A DNA stretch of 27,361 nt from Anaerolineae bacterium (GTDB lineage: Bacteria; Chloroflexota; Anaerolineae; JAADDB01). Numbering within the stretch: position 1 is the first letter of the stretch; each line of letters starts with the position of its first letter. Made by a program: the position numbers and the translations under genes. Shown one piece after another: positions 5,272 through 16,643 of this stretch. The stretch lies in assembly GCA_015486845.1 (NCBI GenBank), contig WFQU01000007.1:1-27361 (forward strand), given 5' to 3'. The notes under the pieces were generated by a model. That model saw nothing but the letters and a program-made list of their open reading frames with translations. It was not told the origin of the DNA and did no database searches.

Positions 5272-6939
5272 ATGTCAGGTAAAATTTCTGGCCCGAGGGT
5301 CGTTCATCCGCCCCGAGGCACAACGCTACACTGCAAAGGATGGCAGCAAGAAGCTGCTTACCGGATGATCCAACACAATTTAGACCCGGAAGTGGCCGGC
5401 GATCCGGAGCATTTGATCGTTTACGGTGGCCGGGGGAAAGCAGCCCGTAATTGGGAAGCTTTCGACGCGATCCTGCGCACGCTGGAGGAACTGGAAAACA
5501 ACGAAACGCTGCTGATCCAGTCCGGCAAGCCGGTGGCGGTTTTCAAGACCCACCCGGATGCCCCGCGCGTTCTCATCGCCAACTCCAACCTGGTGCCGAA
5601 ATGGGCCACCTGGGAGGTTTTTGACGCATTGGAGAAGAAAGGGCTGATCATGTATGGCCAGATGACCGCCGGTTCCTGGATTTACATCGGCACCCAGGGC
5701 ATCCTCCAGGGCACGTACGAGACCTTGGGTGCGGCGGCCAGCAAAGAGGGGTGGCCCAGTCTGAAAGGAAAATTCGTCCTCACTGCCGGCCTCGGCGAAA
5801 TGGGCGGCGCCCAGCCGTTGGCCATCGCCATGAACGACGGTGTGGGCCTCATCGTGGAGGTCGATCCGCGCCGGGCGCAGCGGCGGTTGGAAACGCGTTA
5901 CGTAGACGAAGTGGTGACCGATTTGGACGAAGCACTGCGCAAAGTGTCCGAGCGCCAGGCTAAGGGGGACGGCTGGTCCATCGGTCTCATCGGCAACGCG
6001 GCGGACGTCTACCCGGAATTGGTGCGGCGCGGCGTCACACCGGATATAGTCACCGACCAAACACCAGCCCATGATCCGGAGATGTACGTGCCCAGCGGTA
6101 TCAGCGCCGTCGAAGCGGAGACGTTGCGCCATACCGACCGGGATCATTACATCCAGATGGCGAAAGCCTCCATGGTGAAGCACGTTCAAGCCATTTTGGC
6201 CATGCAGAAACGGGGCGCAGTAGCGTTCGATTACGGCAACAACCTGCGCCAGGAAGCATACGACATGGGCGTGAAGGATGCTTTCGCCTATCCCGGCTTC
6301 GTGCCGGCCTACATCCGGCCCCTTTTCTGCGAGGGGAAAGGGCCGTTCCGCTGGGTGGCACTCTCCGGCGATCCCGAGGACATCTACGTCACCGACCGGA
6401 TCATCATGGACCTCTTCCCGGAGGACGAGCATTTGGTGCGCTGGATCAAAATGGCGGAGAAACGGGTCGCGTGGCAAGGCTTGCCCTCCCGTATCTGCTG
6501 GTTAGGCTACGGCGACCGGGCGAAAGCGGGGTTAGCATTCAACGAAGCAGTGGCCCGCGGCGAAGTCAAAGCGCCCATCGTCATCGGCCGTGATCATTTG
6601 GACGCCGGTTCCGTGGCCTCACCCAACCGGGAAACAGAAGCAATGCAGGACGGCTCCGACGCCATCGCCGATTGGCCAGTGCTGAATGCGCTGCTCAACG
6701 CCGTGGGCGGCGCGACTTGGATCAGCTTCCACCACGGCGGCGGCGTAGGCATGGGCTACAGCTTGCACGCCGGCATGGTGATCCTCGCCGACGGCACGCC
6801 GGAAGCCGCCAAGCGACTGCAACGGGTACTGACCACGGACCCGGGGCTGGGCGTCGTGCGCCACGCCGATGCGGGTTATCCAGCCGCGATCCAATTCGCT
6901 CGGGAACACGGCATCAAAATTCCGATGCTGGGCCGCTAA
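5272..6939 (+). CDS. hutU: Urocanate hydratase (urocanase)
   Basis: About 555 aa with strong urocanase similarity throughout (NAD-binding [12 protein letters not shown], ...[20 protein letters not shown]..., ...[14 protein letters not shown]...). ATG 5272 follows AAAGGAGA with 6-nt spacing. The track's TTG at 5266 is two codons upstream. Confidence 0.9.
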
Positions 6940-11157: not shown

Positions 11158-11264
11158 ATTGCTGGCTGGGCAAGATTAACAAACAGCAAATCTTGTCACA
11201 ACCAAAACGGACGTTAGCCGGAAGGGCTATAACGTCCTTCACGCATCACAAAAGGAGATACACT

Positions 11265-12053
11265 ATGGCAGATGCAATCGGCTTTCTAACCAGCTCTCTA
11301 TTTATCATCATCGTCGTCATCGCGATTCTTACTTCGGCCATCAAGATTGTCCAGGAATACGAACGGGGCGTGATTTTCCGCTTAGGCAGGTTAGTAGGGC
11401 CCAAAGGGCCAGGCTTGTTCCTCATTATTCCCATCGTGGACCGCATGGTCAAAGTAGATTTGCGCGTCGTGACCTTAGACATTCCCGCCCAAGAAGTTAT
11501 AACACGGGACAATGTAACCGTCAAAGTCAACGCTGTAGCCTATTTTAGCATCATTGATCCTTCTTCTGCCATTGTCAAAATAGCCAATTTCCGTTGGGCC
11601 ACTTTACAGATTGCGCAAACCACTTTGCGTAATGTGATCGGCCAGTCGGAGTTAGATGAGTTGCTGGCTCACCGAGAGAAAATAAACCAGCAGTTAGCAC
11701 AGATCATTGATGAAGCAACAGAACCGTGGGGCATCAAAGTATCGAGCGTAGAAGTCAAAGATGTCGAATTACCGGCGTCCATGCAGAAAGCGATGGCGCG
11801 CCAGGCGGAAGCAGAGCGCGAAAAACGGGCCAAAGTCATTCACGCCGAAGGCGAATTTCAGGCATCGCAACGCTTGGCCCAGGCAGCCAAAACGCTGGCC
11901 ACGGAATCGGGCGCTATGCAATTGCGCTATCTGCAAACGCTAACGGAAATATCTTCTAACCAGGGTTCGACCATTGTCTTTCCAGTACCGTTGGATATGA
12001 TGCAAACTTTTAATCATATTTTAGGCTCCAAAGAAGATTCTAAAAAAGAATGA
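11265..12053 (+). CDS. SPFH/band-7 (stomatin/HflK-C-like) membrane protein
   Basis: ATG 11265 follows AAAGGAGATACACT. N-terminal TM helix (FLTSSLFIIIVVIAIL). The SPFH core is recognisable in YERGVIFRLGRLVG...GPGLFLIIPIVDRMVKVDLRVVTLDIP...ITRDNVTVKVNAVAYFSIIDP. C-terminal coiled-coil region (ARQAEAEREKRAKVIHAEGEFQAS). The track start at 11193 adds 24 non-protein-like residues. Confidence 0.85.
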   Translation: MADAIGFLTSSLFIIIVVIAILTSAIKIVQEYERGVIFRLGRLVGPKGPGLFLIIPIVDRMVKVDLRVVTLDIPAQEVITRDNVTVKVNAVAYFSIIDPSSAIVKIANFRWATLQIAQTTLRNVIGQSELDELLAHREKINQQLAQIIDEATEPWGIKVSSVEVKDVELPASMQKAMARQAEAEREKRAKVIHAEGEFQASQRLAQAAKTLATESGAMQLRYLQTLTEISSNQGSTIVFPVPLDMMQTFNHILGSKEDSKKE

Positions 12054-12592
12054 CCACCCGACAACCGATTTATGTTTCGGTTATCGGTAAAGGCCAACGG
12101 CCGGGCGATCCGCCTTTGCCGGAAAATACCGTCAATTTAGCCCGGGAGGTGGGGCGGCTGCTCGCAGAAGCCGGCGCGGTCATGGTCTGTGGCGGACTGG
12201 GTGGCGTGATGGAAGCTGCCGCCCAAGGTGTCGCCGCAGCCGGCGGCGTCAGCATCGGCATCCTGCCCGGCGAGCGTGCCCAAGCCAACTCGTACCTCAC
12301 CTACGCGTTGGCCGGAGGCATCGGTTTCTTGCGGAATCACGTCGTCGTTAACAGCGGGAACGCTGTGATCATGATTGGTGGTGGTAATGGCACGCTACAA
12401 GAAGTAACCATCGCCCATGACGCCCATCGTCCTGTGGTGATCATGGCCGGTAGCGGCGGCTGGGCCGATCGAATCGTGCCGCTGCTTGCCGACGGCTACT
12501 TAGACGAGCGCCGGGAAACAGTGATCCGCGTCGGCTACACACCCCGAGAAGTCGTCGATATCGCTTTACAGCTTGCCAGGGAGATATCATGA
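12050..12592 (+). CDS. TIGR00725-family / LOG-like (SLOG superfamily) Rossmann-fold nucleotide-binding protein
   Basis: 180 aa. Glycine-rich motifs typical of LOG and TIGR00725 (VMVCGGLGGVMEAAAQG; GILP; IMIGGGNGTLQEVT). The start ATG overlaps the SPFH stop (ATGA at 12050-12053), indicating translational coupling. Confidence 0.7.
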   Translation: MTTRQPIYVSVIGKGQRPGDPPLPENTVNLAREVGRLLAEAGAVMVCGGLGGVMEAAAQGVAAAGGVSIGILPGERAQANSYLTYALAGGIGFLRNHVVVNSGNAVIMIGGGNGTLQEVTIAHDAHRPVVIMAGSGGWADRIVPLLADGYLDERRETVIRVGYTPREVVDIALQLAREIS

Positions 12593-12830: not shown

Positions 12831-13001
12831 GTGCCGCACTTTTTTAGCGACGACATCTTCGGGATCATTTTTTGACCATTGCTTTTTATCTGCGTGCGCA
12901 GCCTGTGTTTATCTGCGTCCCAATTTATTTTCAGGGGAGACCCGCTAAAACACGGCGCTGGCCGGGCGCCAAATCTTTCTCAGGGAGAGATATTTTTGAA
13001 G

Positions 13002-14339
13002 ATGAAACGTAAGTTCAATTTGTGGTTTTGGCCGTTTTTACTCTTGTTAATTGTTTTAGCTGCTGTTCTTTTCTGGTGGAAGCCGCGAACGCCATTATCA
13101 ACACTGCACCCCGCTAACGAATACACTTTATACATCGAACCAGCAGCCGGCAAACAACCCATTTTAGACGCGTTGCACAGTGCCAAGAAAAGTGTACGCA
13201 TCGTCGTTTACAATCTGACCGACGAAGATGTCATGAATGCCATGAAAGCATTAGTGAAGCAAGGTGTCTCTGTTAGGCTCATGATCGAAGACAATCCCTA
13301 TGGCGGCAGCTCTCGCAACATCGACGTAGGCAACGAAATGATGGCGGCCGGCGTCAAAGTGAAATGGTCGCCGAAATATGTGCGCTATCTGCACGAAAAA
13401 AGTATCGTCGTGGACGACAAAGTGGCGTATATTATGACCGGCAACTTGACGACCTCCATGATGACCGCCAACCGGGAGTACATTTTGCGCACCACGAACC
13501 CGGCTGTCATCCACGAAATTGGTCGCGTTTTCGAAGGGGATTGGATCAGGAAGCCAGTCGATTTGAGCAATAGTGTATTAGTTTGGTCTCCTGATAACGC
13601 CCGGCCCCGGTTGCTTGCTTTCTTCCGACAGGCCAAAAAGTCCATTTGGTTGGAAGAGCAAAACTCCTCAGACCCGGATGTGCTGTTCGCGTTGAGCAAA
13701 GCGTGCAAGAACGGCGTTGACGTGCGGGTCATCACCAGCCCGCATTTCCCCATCGAGAGCGATTATGACGAGCCCGGCCGCAAACAGTTACGGGAAGCGG
13801 GCTGTCAGGTGCGCTACATCGATTCGCCGTATGTCCACGCGAAAGTGTTCGTTGTGGACGGAAAAATGGCGTTCGTCGGCTCCGAGAACCTGACCAGCAA
13901 TTCTCTGGATAACAACCGGGAATTGGGCATCGCGCTGTACGAACCGGCCATCATCAAACAGATGCAGAAACAGTTTTTAGCCGATTGGGATAAAGGCCGG
14001 GAAGAAGCTATTCCCAAGAACGGCCTGGCCATTCCGGCCCAGGGCTATGTCGATTACCATGACGCCATGAAGTATCTGTATCGAGACGATGTGCCAGTCC
14101 GGCTGACGGTGCAGGCAATTTACAGGACCGATGCTGTAACCTGGCTCATGGGCGATAACGATCAGGATACGAATTTCAAGGTCGTGTTCTTCCCGCGGAC
14201 GTATAGCCAATTTCCAGAAGAACCAGCCAAGTTCTTCAAAGGCAAGACCATCGAGGTGACCGGCCTCATCAAGATTTATCGCGGCTGGCCGGAAGTTATT
14301 GTAGACGACGCCAGCCAGATCAAAGTCGTAAACAAGTGA
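13002..14339 (+). CDS. Phospholipase D superfamily protein with two HKD motifs, an N-terminal TM anchor and a C-terminal OB-fold-like domain (nuclease- or cardiolipin-synthase-like)
   Basis: HKD motif 1 is YLHEKSIVVDD; HKD motif 2 is YVHAKVFVVDGKMAFVGSENLT (HxKxxxxD...GSxN). N-terminal hydrophobic helix FNLWFWPFLLLLIVLAAVLFWW. The C-terminal roughly 110 aa (...GKTIEVTGLIKIYRGWPEVIVDDASQIKVV) resembles bacterial OB-fold (BOF/tRNA_anti-like) domains. The start is probably ATG 13002 (or TTG 12996), with GGGAGAG upstream. The track's extra 41 N-terminal residues look non-coding. Confidence 0.8.
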   Translation: MKRKFNLWFWPFLLLLIVLAAVLFWWKPRTPLSTLHPANEYTLYIEPAAGKQPILDALHSAKKSVRIVVYNLTDEDVMNAMKALVKQGVSVRLMIEDNPYGGSSRNIDVGNEMMAAGVKVKWSPKYVRYLHEKSIVVDDKVAYIMTGNLTTSMMTANREYILRTTNPAVIHEIGRVFEGDWIRKPVDLSNSVLVWSPDNARPRLLAFFRQAKKSIWLEEQNSSDPDVLFALSKACKNGVDVRVITSPHFPIESDYDEPGRKQLREAGCQVRYIDSPYVHAKVFVVDGKMAFVGSENLTSNSLDNNRELGIALYEPAIIKQMQKQFLADWDKGREEAIPKNGLAIPAQGYVDYHDAMKYLYRDDVPVRLTVQAIYRTDAVTWLMGDNDQDTNFKVVFFPRTYSQFPEEPAKFFKGKTIEVTGLIKIYRGWPEVIVDDASQIKVVNK

Positions 14340-14903: not shown

Positions 14904-15551
14904 ATGCCAGAAAATTCTCCTTCTGATTCGCCTGCCAGCGGGGAAAAGGCGAAGTTTCTCTGGCTTGCTATCGCTTTCATCATCGGCATGCTGCTGGGTG
15001 CCGGTGTGATGCACTTGTACCAACCACCCGCCGATACACCGCCACTAATCATTGCGACGGCCGCGCCGACCGTGACGCCGCGCCCTTCCGCTACGCCCGG
15101 CCCCATGCATGTTTATGCCAGTGGTGCCGTGCGCAATCCGGCGGTCTACCGCCTGCCGCCGGGGAGCCGTGCCGATGCTCTATTGAAAGCAGCCGGCGGT
15201 CCTACCAACAACGCGGACTTGCGCCATTTGAACTTGGCCGCCCCATTGCACGACGGACAGCAACTATACGTGCCCAGCGTGGACGATGTTTGCCCGCCCA
15301 CTATTACCCTGGAAGCAGAAACCGGCAACGTAACCATTACGGAGATGACGCCAGGCACCATTTCCGGCGGCAAAGTCGATATTAATCACGCCAGCGCCGC
15401 GGAGTTAGCAAAGCTGCCCGGCGTGGGGCCGGCCATGGCGCAACGCATCATCGCCGCCCGGCCGTACAGCAAAATCGAGGATATCAAGCGGGTGCGGGGC
15501 ATCGGCGATAAAACCTTCGCGAAGCTAAAACCGTACATCGTGACGAAATAA
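14904..15551 (+). CDS. comEA: Competence protein ComEA (SLBB domain plus tandem helix-hairpin-helix DNA-binding domain)
   Basis: N-terminal TM helix and a Pro/Thr/Ala linker. SLBB-like segment (VYASGAVRNPAVYRLPPGSRADALLKAAGG...LYVP). C-terminal HhH motifs (INHASAAELAKLPGVGPAMAQRIIAARPYSKIEDIKRVRGIGDKTFAKLKP). AAGGTGAA ribosome-binding site. Confidence 0.8.
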   Translation: MPENSPSDSPASGEKAKFLWLAIAFIIGMLLGAGVMHLYQPPADTPPLIIATAAPTVTPRPSATPGPMHVYASGAVRNPAVYRLPPGSRADALLKAAGGPTNNADLRHLNLAAPLHDGQQLYVPSVDDVCPPTITLEAETGNVTITEMTPGTISGGKVDINHASAAELAKLPGVGPAMAQRIIAARPYSKIEDIKRVRGIGDKTFAKLKPYIVTK

Positions 15552-15578: not shown

Positions 15579-15620
15579 AGAAGTTCAACTTCTTCGAGAA
15601 GTTGAACTTCTCGTCCTTTT
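15579..15620. terminator. Perfect 14-bp-stem palindrome plus T-tract: intrinsic terminator for comEA and probable end of the convergent Cas4-like operon
   Basis: AGAAGTTCAACTTC (15579-15592), loop TTCGA, then GAAGTTGAACTTCT (15598-15611), followed by cgtcctttt. It starts 28 nt after the comEA stop. The same arms recur at 17521-17553. Confidence 0.7.
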
Positions 15621-15675: not shown

Positions 15676-16218
15676 TCACGCCAGCGATTGACCGCAGACA
15701 TGCCGCAACCCGCATTGCCGGCAGCGACGGGGATTGTTGTGGCTGCGGGGGACATCGTCCCGACCAGCCGCGGCGCGCATGGCGTCCATGGTCGCCAGTA
15801 GTTGCGATCTGGCCGCCTCGTCGAATAGCACACGCACATCGCCGCCGGGCTCGCCGACATAATGAATAATGCCATACGGCGGTGTTTGCCCCATCCTTTC
15901 TTCCACTAACAAGCAATAAGCTAACAATTGTAAGCGATGGCTCGCATACGGTCGTCCATTCGCCGGCAAATGACTTGTTTTCACTTCCACCGGAATGAAC
16001 ATGTTGTCATGGTGAATCAGGTAATCCGGCTTGCCGGAGAGCCGGTAGCGCCGGCTACGCAACGGGTGATGCACTTTTTGCCAGGATGCAGTGTCCGCAT
16101 AAACGACCTCTCCGGATGGCAAACCACTCGCACCCCGAATCCGTTTGGCCTGCCGTGACAGGAATCCGGCCAGCAAGAGCGACAGGATCACGCCGGTAAT
16201 CAGCCAAACGGCGTTCAC
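15676..16218 (-). CDS. Cas4/DUF83-like PD-(D/E)XK nuclease, C-terminal part: N-terminal TM anchor, then motifs II and III, QxxxY and a C-x2-C-x5-C iron-sulfur triad
   Basis: TM helix MNAVWLITGVILSLLLAGFL followed by basic residues (positive-inside). GKPDYLIHHDNMFIPVEVKTS gives the D...E-V-K catalytic motifs. QLLAYC matches QhxxY. The C-terminus CRQCGLRHVC has the same spacing as the Cas4 cluster cysteines. GTG start at 16216-16218 follows GGGGAGGCGTACT and overlaps the stop of the upstream ORF (GTGA). Confidence 0.65.
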   Translation of the reverse strand: MNAVWLITGVILSLLLAGFLSRQAKRIRGASGLPSGEVVYADTASWQKVHHPLRSRRYRLSGKPDYLIHHDNMFIPVEVKTSHLPANGRPYASHRLQLLAYCLLVEERMGQTPPYGIIHYVGEPGGDVRVLFDEAARSQLLATMDAMRAAAGRDDVPRSHNNPRRCRQCGLRHVCGQSLA

Positions 16219-16475
16219 AGTACGCCTCCCCGGGCCATGGACCAGACCAGTATCAACAAGAGCAACAAAGCAATGAACAACACTACCCTCGCTGCCTGTT
16301 GATAGCGCTCCCCCCGGCGCACCGAATTTGCGTGCTGTTCATGTTCCTTGATACCGCGCTGAAAAGCAGCCTCGTTAGCCGGCGTTTCGCCACGCACATA
16401 GCGCAGCCACCAAGCGCGATGACAGTAAGCCCAATTGCCGATCTCGCTGGCCGAAAGCCAACCATCTTTGTTCAT
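16215..16475 (-). CDS. Cas4/DUF83-like nuclease, N-terminal part: first cluster Cys plus motif I, then a C-terminal TM anchor
   Basis: LSASEIGNWAYCHRAWWL matches the Cas4 N-terminal SxS-h-x3-YxYCxRxxWL signature. GIKEHEQH resembles the G-x-hHE motif I. C-terminal TM helix VVLFIALLLLLILVW. ATG 16473-16475 follows GGGAGG with a 9-nt spacer. The track start (TTG 16511) is 12 codons upstream without a ribosome-binding site. Confidence 0.55.
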   Translation of the reverse strand: MNKDGWLSASEIGNWAYCHRAWWLRYVRGETPANEAAFQRGIKEHEQHANSVRRGERYQQAARVVLFIALLLLLILVWSMARGGVL

Positions 16476-16643
16476 GAATAAGTGCCTCCCAAGCCAAACA
16501 AGCTGGAACAAAAATAAACACTGATTTCACGTAGATAAATCAGAAAGGATCAGCGAACATCAACGCTATCTGCGTCATCCGCGCCCAAAGTTTAGCCTGG
16601 GCAAGCCAGAACTCATAAGCTGCGCGCAGCAAGAGTAGCTCCA

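Follow-up and report, generated by a model that had tools for sequence, protein, structure and literature searches.

Cas4, AddB, Dna2 and the related iron-staple nucleases are textbook soluble enzymes. The iron-staple or related PD-(D/E)XK domains of AddB, AdnAB, Dna2, MGME1 and Exo5 are soluble and usually fused to, or partnered with, a helicase, and we know of none that is membrane-inserted or naturally split at the point described here. Solo-Cas4 shows a vertical, housekeeping-type pattern, with a monophyletic solo-Cas4 in many Chloroflexi (Hudaiberdiev et al., 2017; PMC5704561); the words transmembrane and split are absent from that Cas4 phylogenomics paper. The characterised Solo-Cas4 of M. 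mazei is a soluble 30.7-kDa protein that forms decamers and lacks the RecB motif; it was described with no mention of a membrane, and was ruled out on these grounds as a member of the family studied here (PMC12501428). We analyzed a 27,361-nt stretch of an Anaerolineae bacterium contig (WFQU01000007.1, GCA_015486845.1), hereafter the window, whose positions serve as coordinates throughout. Its minus strand carries two overlapping genes, which we call the N-half and the C-half, and we propose, with a probability of about 0.75, that their products would come together as the subunits of a single Cas4-family nuclease, tethered to the membrane and independent of CRISPR (a solo-Cas4).

The N-half gene (16215-16475, minus strand) encodes 86 aa, from an ATG at 16475-16473 to a TGA stop at 16217-16215, and the C-half gene (15676-16218, minus strand) encodes 180 aa, from a GTG at 16218-16216 to a TGA stop at 15678-15676. 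As described in the initial annotation of this DNA, the two open reading frames (ORFs) meet in a 4-nt GTGA overlap (16215-16218, minus strand) made of the C-half start and the N-half stop, and a Shine-Dalgarno-like GGGGAGG (16225-16231, minus strand) stands 6 nt 5' of the GTG, inside the end of the N-half coding sequence. The N-half is preceded by a site of its own, GGGAGG (16485-16490, minus strand), 9 nt 5' of its ATG; the overlap and both sites were read from the sequence. The ORF listing also has a longer, TTG-started version of the N-half, from 16511. We prefer the ATG because of its Shine-Dalgarno site and because 86-aa gene calls agree in two other assemblies. The N-half product consists of a cysteine-bearing helix, a motif-I GxxxHxxH, one predicted transmembrane helix (AARVVLFIALLLLLILVWSMA, 16233-16292, minus strand, residues about 62-81 by Kyte-Doolittle hydropathy) and an external tail of 5-6 residues. 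The C-half product begins with a transmembrane helix predicted in the same way (AVWLITGVILSLLLAGFLS, 16156-16212, minus strand, residues about 3-21), followed by a basic linker (RQAKRIRGASGLPSG), the PD-(D/E)XK core and the cluster triad.

The hallmarks of Cas4 are divided between these ORFs, motif by motif, as the initial annotation had claimed. More specifically, the N-half holds the first cluster cysteine (Cys18 in SASEIGNWAYCHRAWW, codon 16424-16422) and motif I, GIKEHEQH, with His45 at 16343-16341 and His48 at 16334-16332. The C-half holds motif II, GKPDY (D65, 16026-16024), motif III, EVK (E78, 15987-15985; K80, 15981-15979), the QLLAY motif (Q97/Y101, 15930-15916) and the triad CRQCGLRHVC (C166/C169/C175, 15723-15694). 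Profile searches were run with each ORF and with their concatenation. Against TIGR00372 (NCBIfam cas4, 180 positions, cutoff 65 bits) the N-half matches model positions 3-52 at 16.7 bits, under the cutoff, the C-half matches positions 52-179 at 78.7 bits, and the concatenated pair reaches 91.6 bits. The PADLOC Cas4d model PDLC02034 is shared out in the same manner (positions 3-61 and 56-180, respectively). Pfam PF01930 (Cas_Cas4, cutoff 22.7) gives 44.4 bits for the C-half and 50.3 bits for the concatenation, and PDDEXK_1 is also over threshold on the C-half. The C-half alone is consequently assigned to the Cas4 family by curated thresholds; the N-half alone falls below them, yet covers the complementary model positions. 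The fold is that of Cas4, and CRISPR-associated Cas4 proteins give the best matches in both sequence and fold. The stretch separating the two profile matches is about 76 residues long; it contains, in order, a helix extension, then a hydrophobic helix, the chain break in a very short turn, another hydrophobic helix and the basic linker.

Alignment to solved structures places the N-half at the missing end of the domain. In a profile of 36 concatenated pairs, the N-half cysteine helix (…YvyCaraWw…) aligns with the N-terminal cluster cysteine of 8d3l (type I-C Cas4) and 4r5q (Pcal_0546), and its GxxxH with the conserved GxxxH of both. The corresponding histidine of SSO0001, His62, is an Mn2+ ligand along with Asp99 and Glu113 (quoted in PMC12501428 and PMC13621843). 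Residues A9, C18, W22, G41, H45 and H48 are invariant among 44 N-half homologues, and the cysteine motif CxxAW is kept in 62 of 62 paired N-halves. The C-halves keep Cx2Cx5C and QLxxYC in 83 of 83 cases and GxPDY…PxExK in 82 of 83. The motif-I histidine, the motif II aspartate, the motif III ExK and QxxxY are all invariant among homologues, but distributed over two proteins.

Three further observations concern these motifs. Cys102 of the C-half (15915-15913), right after the QLxxY tyrosine, is invariant in 83 of 83 C-halves and in the single-chain forms that were read, and could be a spare cluster ligand or a redox-sensitive site. The motif-I loop (16324-16371, N-half residues about 35-52) differs at about 20 of 50 nt from the corresponding patch of a second assembly of the locus (L083:1133-1180; GIKEHEQHANSV versus GLVGHVRHATLV), both histidines being kept; three more differences lie just upstream and the downstream flank is identical. 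In a Logan assembly, the N-half gene is near-identical to that of the window, with three differences upstream of the patch. The patch looks like a site of localised recombination or hypervariability, and a smaller cluster of changes surrounds motif II of the C-half when the window is compared with P0001.

The initial annotation had itself raised the alternative of an assembly frameshift, that is, one gene interrupted by a sequencing error in the CCCGGGGAGG run; a recent pseudogene is considered here together with it. Homopolymer-rich sequence does adjoin the junction, and other lineages do have single-chain homologues, about 265-300 aa in length. We give this explanation almost no credence, as it is excluded by comparative loci, by their varied junctions and by two independent assemblies. 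The same two genes with an identical junction are found in assemblies from different samples (ENA ERZ23499380, L083; Logan SRR5149607, L084), and the nearest other species, an Anaerolineae metagenome-assembled genome (MAG) with 62% C-half identity (L003), is split too, at a different junction (TGATG). For the wider comparison, 83 loci were reached through the C-half and 80, on metagenome contigs, independently through the N-half. None of these 163 loci contains a reading frame joining both halves, and in all 83 C-half loci a stop codon closes the C-half frame immediately 5' of its hydrophobic helix. In the window, each half has its own Shine-Dalgarno site and start codon. Stop-separated frames, with motifs kept in both pieces, therefore point to two independent genes under selection. 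The split is real, not a sequencing error, and no fused form occurs among the related loci.

The arrangement of the halves varies. The N-half lies upstream, on the same strand and at a distance of at most 320 nt, in 45 of the 83 C-half loci, with junctions ranging from 16-nt overlaps to short gaps, and 0.7-3.2 kb upstream behind one to four intervening genes in 20; no N-half was found within 6 kb in 14 loci with sufficient upstream sequence, and 4 are cut by a contig end. The clades with such orphan C-halves include the source of L073, a Caldilineaceae chromosome (OZ242331.1). Among the N-half-first loci with at least 700 nt of downstream sequence (66 of 80), the C-half is adjacent or near in 50, separated in 6 and not in the locus in 10. 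The adjacent, separated and unlinked states are clade-specific in the C-half tree, so that whole genes between the halves, or unlinked halves, characterize entire clades in which the catalytic residues are all kept; this again speaks against a frameshift. The translational coupling put forward in the initial annotation accordingly stands for the window and for many relatives, but it does not define the family, in some clades of which the halves are separated or unlinked. Programmed frameshifting to a fused protein was considered and rejected: junctions extend from overlaps of 16 nt to separations of 3.2 kb and share no conserved slippery site. Where genes intervene, one recurrent type encodes a membrane-anchored, Pro/Thr-rich YkuD L,D-transpeptidase-like protein (L005, L007, L009, L010, L015, L016, L023-L025, L037-L039, L043 and L068), followed in two loci by ABC-transporter-like genes, and another a HEAT-like protein of about 213 aa (L012, L022, L026, L047, L060 and L077, with two copies in L077).

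A hydrophobic helix on each side of the break, with basic residues on the nuclease side, was also part of the initial annotation and is a property of the family. Using the Kyte-Doolittle 19-residue mean on 62 homologous pairs, we found that the N-half helix (residues about 62-80) has a maximum of 2.65 in the window and a median of 2.60 among the homologues (minimum 1.86), the corresponding values for the C-half helix being 2.24, 2.46 and 1.59; the window values and the medians are well above 1.6. Both helices contain conserved small residues, Ala69 in the N-half and a Gly in the C-half. Very little protein faces outward, the median tail being 3.5 residues long in the N-half and 0 in the C-half. 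Lysines and arginines within 15 residues of the helices number 454 on the nuclease side and 45 on the other, and a K/R-rich stretch comes right after the C-half helix. Together, these features suggest an N-in/C-out helix followed by an N-out/C-in helix, that is, a hairpin cut at its external turn, which would leave both catalytic parts in the cytoplasm.

An AlphaFold2 model was made of the joined window chain, using an alignment (A7) of 121 N-halves and 8 C-halves. This composition was chosen with local MAFFT tests, in which the correct register required at most 8 C-halves with the 121 N-halves; alignments with many C-halves put the N-halves out of register, opposite the C-half RASGLPxG region. 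Since A7 holds only 8 C-halves, the alignment behind the C part of the model is shallow. The model has a predicted local distance difference test score (pLDDT) of 83.2 and a predicted template modelling score (pTM) of 0.76, and shows an alpha/beta core with a hairpin of two long helices, residues 35-81 (continuous, pLDDT roughly 82-93) and 86-117 in joined-chain numbering.

Relatives in which the two parts remain on one chain came from an exhaustive search with HMMER, in which the joined sequence was compared with 1.84 billion representatives and gave 1,772 matches. We classified the best 147 of these: 81 are C-half-like with one hydrophobic helix, 11 are N-halves, and 20 are single chains by a motif filter calling for an N-terminal Cys/His part and a C-terminal core, with roughly ten more recognized by reading the long matches. 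The single chains have 2 (P0244, P0264, P0252, P0386), 4 (P0325, P0327, P0332, P0337, P0356) or 8 (P0274, P0284, P0304, P0329, P0330, P0353, P0385) hydrophobic helices between the two parts, in the interval from motif I to motif II, counted by a simple window method and by reading the sequences; a few odd counts reflect merging or splitting of helices by that method. The helix number being even, both parts are expected to stay on one side of the membrane. Named examples, from methanogenic archaea, are Methermicoccus shengliensis WP_052353351.1 and Methanofollis formosanus WP_220682637.1, both annotated 'CRISPR-associated protein Cas4', and further single chains come from Methanosarcinales, other Euryarchaeota and Gemmatimonadota MAGs. 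The existence of these forms implies that insertion into the membrane predates the split and has a wider distribution. In a quick ordering by neighbour joining, the fused forms with two transmembrane helices are scattered among split forms and the forms with more helices fall together, an ordering that singles out neither fission nor fusion as ancestral.

The same split was found widely when sought in other genomes. The concatenated query matched at least 1,864 protein clusters at the 90% identity level, and the best 120 are all 167-193 aa long, the architecture of the C-half. A profile of 44 N-halves matched at least 2,509 clusters, with the best 120 all at 78-94 aa; a single-sequence search with the 86-aa N-half gave one near-identical match only, which is due to the word-index prefilter and not to absence. 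A scan of one genome per species yielded at least 573 genomes with a C-half relative, the best 80 of which are nearly all Chloroflexota (Anaerolineae, Caldilineae, Thermoflexales) with a few Acidobacteriota. The split is thus no one-off but the usual state of a large family, most of it in Chloroflexota. Many members of both half families carry the IMG label 'Cas4 (RecB family)', and annotation pipelines therefore catch the similarity and miss the architecture.

From these data we infer how the pair might work. The N subunit would supply the N-terminal helix, which carries the first Fe-S cysteine, together with the histidine of motif I, which acts as a metal ligand in solved Cas4 proteins; the C subunit would supply the motif II aspartate, the motif III ExK, QxxxY and the Cx2Cx5C triad. 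A transmembrane hairpin of two helices would be inserted between motif I and motif II, and the chain break would sit within this hairpin, each subunit contributing one helix, with few residues facing outward and both catalytic parts in the cytoplasm. Both products would be translated from one transcript by way of the stop/start overlap and the internal Shine-Dalgarno site, and would then insert into the membrane and pair through their transmembrane helices. The soluble parts would finally assemble round a shared Fe-S cluster into one active site, where DNA would be cut beside the membrane. Several points weigh against the two-subunit reading. The topology is a prediction from hydrophobicity and charge bias. 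The structure model treats the two halves as one covalent chain and uses an unpaired alignment, and its C-terminal cysteine region has a pLDDT of only 38-56, as would be expected of a model without the cluster. For fourteen C-half loci and some 7-10 N-half loci, the other half was not found within about 6 kb, and the invariant Cys102 could in principle stand in for the N-half cysteine as fourth ligand. Finally, the functional context is heterogeneous, and a TRAX/C3PO-like neighbour that is frequent elsewhere (see below) is missing from this window.

Some of these points would also fit a C-half that is a self-sufficient, truncated, membrane-anchored nuclease, the small protein being a dispensable or regulatory partner (an inhibitor or chaperone) outside the active site. 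Such a C-half would be at home in the 14 loci without a nearby N-half, it passes the Cas4 thresholds by itself, and it might draw its fourth ligand from Cys102 or do without an intact cluster, given that the cluster is reported not to be essential for cleavage in a M. mazei solo-Cas4 mutant (PMC13621843) or in Leptospira interrogans Cas4 (PMC8610317). We nevertheless judge this improbable, as the N-half keeps precisely what a Cas4 N-terminus needs, namely the invariant cysteine, a histidine aligned to the metal-ligand histidine and the AWW sequence. The N-half is also equally widespread, its counterpart is retained in the single-chain relatives, and orphan N-halves exist too, as expected for unlinked subunits.

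The two-subunit nuclease is not part of a recognizable CRISPR system. In agreement with the initial annotation, no CRISPR-like repeat array was found in the 27-kb window and no Cas1 or Cas2 match among the window proteins scanned, and there is no cas-like cluster among the 22 commonest conserved neighbour clusters of 82 related loci. With no array and no cas1 or cas2 nearby, the pair is therefore to be described as a solo-Cas4. Its best sequence and structure matches being CRISPR-associated Cas4, one could still picture a bona fide adaptation Cas4 acting in trans with Cas1-Cas2 encoded elsewhere in the genome. This is very improbable: besides the lack of cas genes around the pair, the Chloroflexi Cas4 is treated as a monophyletic solo-Cas4 clade (PMC5704561), and a membrane tether is ill-suited to a soluble Cas4-Cas1-Cas2 complex. 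The biological role is not CRISPR adaptation.

In related genomes the pair has recurrent neighbours. In 35 of 65 Chloroflexota loci with an N-half (within L005-L080; e.g., L059:5028-5705), the start of that gene is abutted or overlapped by another, which encodes about 215-230 aa. Its product is a clear homologue of archaeal TRAX/C3PO-like proteins (AfTRAX 3zc1, E 4e-36; NEQ131), although its NCBIfam name is 'haloacid dehalogenase superfamily protein' (PRK14562), and the gene remains with the N-half where the halves are separated. This suggests that many Chloroflexota have a three-gene nuclease operon of TRAX/C3PO-like protein, N-half and C-half. Genes that also recur nearby encode NAD kinase (18 loci), RecN (16), a B-box zinc-finger membrane protein (15), DUF3467 (13), SSB (9) and HisRS (9). 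Among the archaeal single-chain loci, that of Methanofollis formosanus (CP037968.1, L085) has an RNase HI gene (5576-6004) overlapping the start of the single-chain gene (6001-6825) by 4 nt; two others have only unrelated housekeeping or mobile genes around them.

Two kinds of role were weighed against this background. Housekeeping nucleic-acid processing or repair at the membrane, such as end processing or turnover, is our tentative preference, held at well short of even odds, because inheritance looks vertical and because the neighbours include a TRAX/C3PO-like nuclease, SSB, RecN and RNase HI. By analogy with the membrane-bound SNIPE, the pair might instead be a defence gatekeeper, stationed at the membrane's inner face and cutting phage or plasmid DNA as this enters the cell. 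A predicted membrane-tethered DNA nuclease with a cytoplasmic active site would suit this role, there is precedent for self/non-self discrimination by membrane location (Saxton et al., Nature 2026, PMC13190303), the patch in the motif-I loop looks hypervariable at strain level, and Cas4 relatives do act in defence, e.g., ACE1 with Argonaute. We regard it as conceivable but unlikely. The context is not that of a defence island and the neighbours are housekeeping genes (TyrRS, NadK, RecN, SSB, HisRS, ribosomal proteins); the C-half tree groups by gene arrangement and, per record titles, by taxon, which suggests vertical inheritance; PADLOC models match generic Cas4/DruK nuclease domains only; and the outward parts, a few residues long, include no obvious sensor. 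A more doubtful proposal is that hairpin and split form a control device, in which two inactive anchored halves would become active only where and when their transmembrane helices meet. The targets could then be DNA crossing or touching the membrane (phage injection, transformation, conjugation) or membrane-attached replication or repair intermediates, and in many Chloroflexota the pair might act with the co-encoded TRAX/C3PO-like nuclease.

The immediate surroundings in the window are of a different make-up. Convergent with the C-half gene lies a gene for a ComEA-like DNA-binding protein (SLBB + HHH_3; 14904-15551, plus strand), and a terminator scan found a hairpin with a perfect 15-bp stem (AGAAGTTCAACTTCT / AGAAGTTGAACTTCT) between the two, at 15579-15611. 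It has a T-rich tail on the plus strand and, as a consensus match only, is probably a bidirectional terminator ending the two-gene unit. Upstream of the N-half are a 307-aa ORF without a family match and tyrosyl-tRNA synthetase. Neither these two nor the ComEA-like gene neighbours the pair in any of 82 related loci (L001-L082), and a functional link to the convergent ComEA-like gene was ruled out on this count as coincidental synteny. Farther along lie genes for a two-HKD phospholipase D/cardiolipin-synthase-like protein (12879-14339), a SLOG/LOG-like protein (12050-12592) and an SPFH/Band-7 protein (11193-12053), all on the plus strand and not conserved neighbours of the pair elsewhere.

The family is of interest for several reasons. 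It appears to be a large conserved lineage in which the Cas4 catalytic domain is built into the membrane and the Fe-S and metal site would be completed in trans. As a probable natural case of a split Fe-S nuclease, it is relevant to protein-fragment complementation and to the way the 'iron staple' keeps the fold together. It also offers a handle on solo-Cas4 function, as a fixed membrane location narrows the possible substrates. In databases, labelling both fragments 'Cas4' can inflate Cas4 gene counts and hide the architecture. Should the enzyme police DNA at the membrane, it would be a second kind of location-based nuclease beside SNIPE, and should hairpin and split act as a control device, they would represent a new way to restrict a Cas4-type nuclease in space.

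In relation to described systems, the enzyme family is known, and its membrane-integrated architecture and natural two-gene split appear undescribed. The terms 'split Cas4', 'membrane-bound', 'membrane-anchored' and 'membrane-associated Cas4' do not occur in the searchable full-text literature, whose coverage is incomplete, and a publication on single-chain membrane-inserted Cas4 was not found there either. The initial annotation's remark that no membrane-inserted or split Cas4 has been described thus holds for that literature, but the membrane insertion is not unique to this pair, as the single chains with 2, 4 or 8 predicted helices indicate. These share with the window pair the N-terminal cysteine helix and GxxxH, the C-terminal core and the position at which the helices are inserted; they are one polypeptide (320-600 aa in the forms with 4 or 8 helices), labelled 'Cas4' or 'Dna2/Cas4 domain-containing protein', whereas the window form is two. 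SNIPE, a nuclease constitutively at the cell membrane, is a precedent for location restricting which DNA is cut (PMC13190303); it is a defence system with demonstrated partners, and its likeness to the window pair is one of mechanism only and not of family membership. The window locus very probably belongs to the Chloroflexi solo-Cas4 clade of PMC5704561, with which it shares a position outside CRISPR-cas loci and a vertical-looking inheritance. With CRISPR-associated Cas4 (PF01930/DUF83, TIGR00372, COG1468; 8d3l, the Cas4/Cas1 fusion 7mi4, 4ic1 SSO0001, 4r5q Pcal_0546) the pair has in common the PD-(D/E)XK RecB-like core, its motifs and the four cysteines of the Fe-S 'staple', one N-terminal and three C-terminal. 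CRISPR-associated Cas4 is a soluble single chain working with Cas1-Cas2, whereas the window form has a predicted membrane hairpin between motifs I and II and is encoded by two genes.

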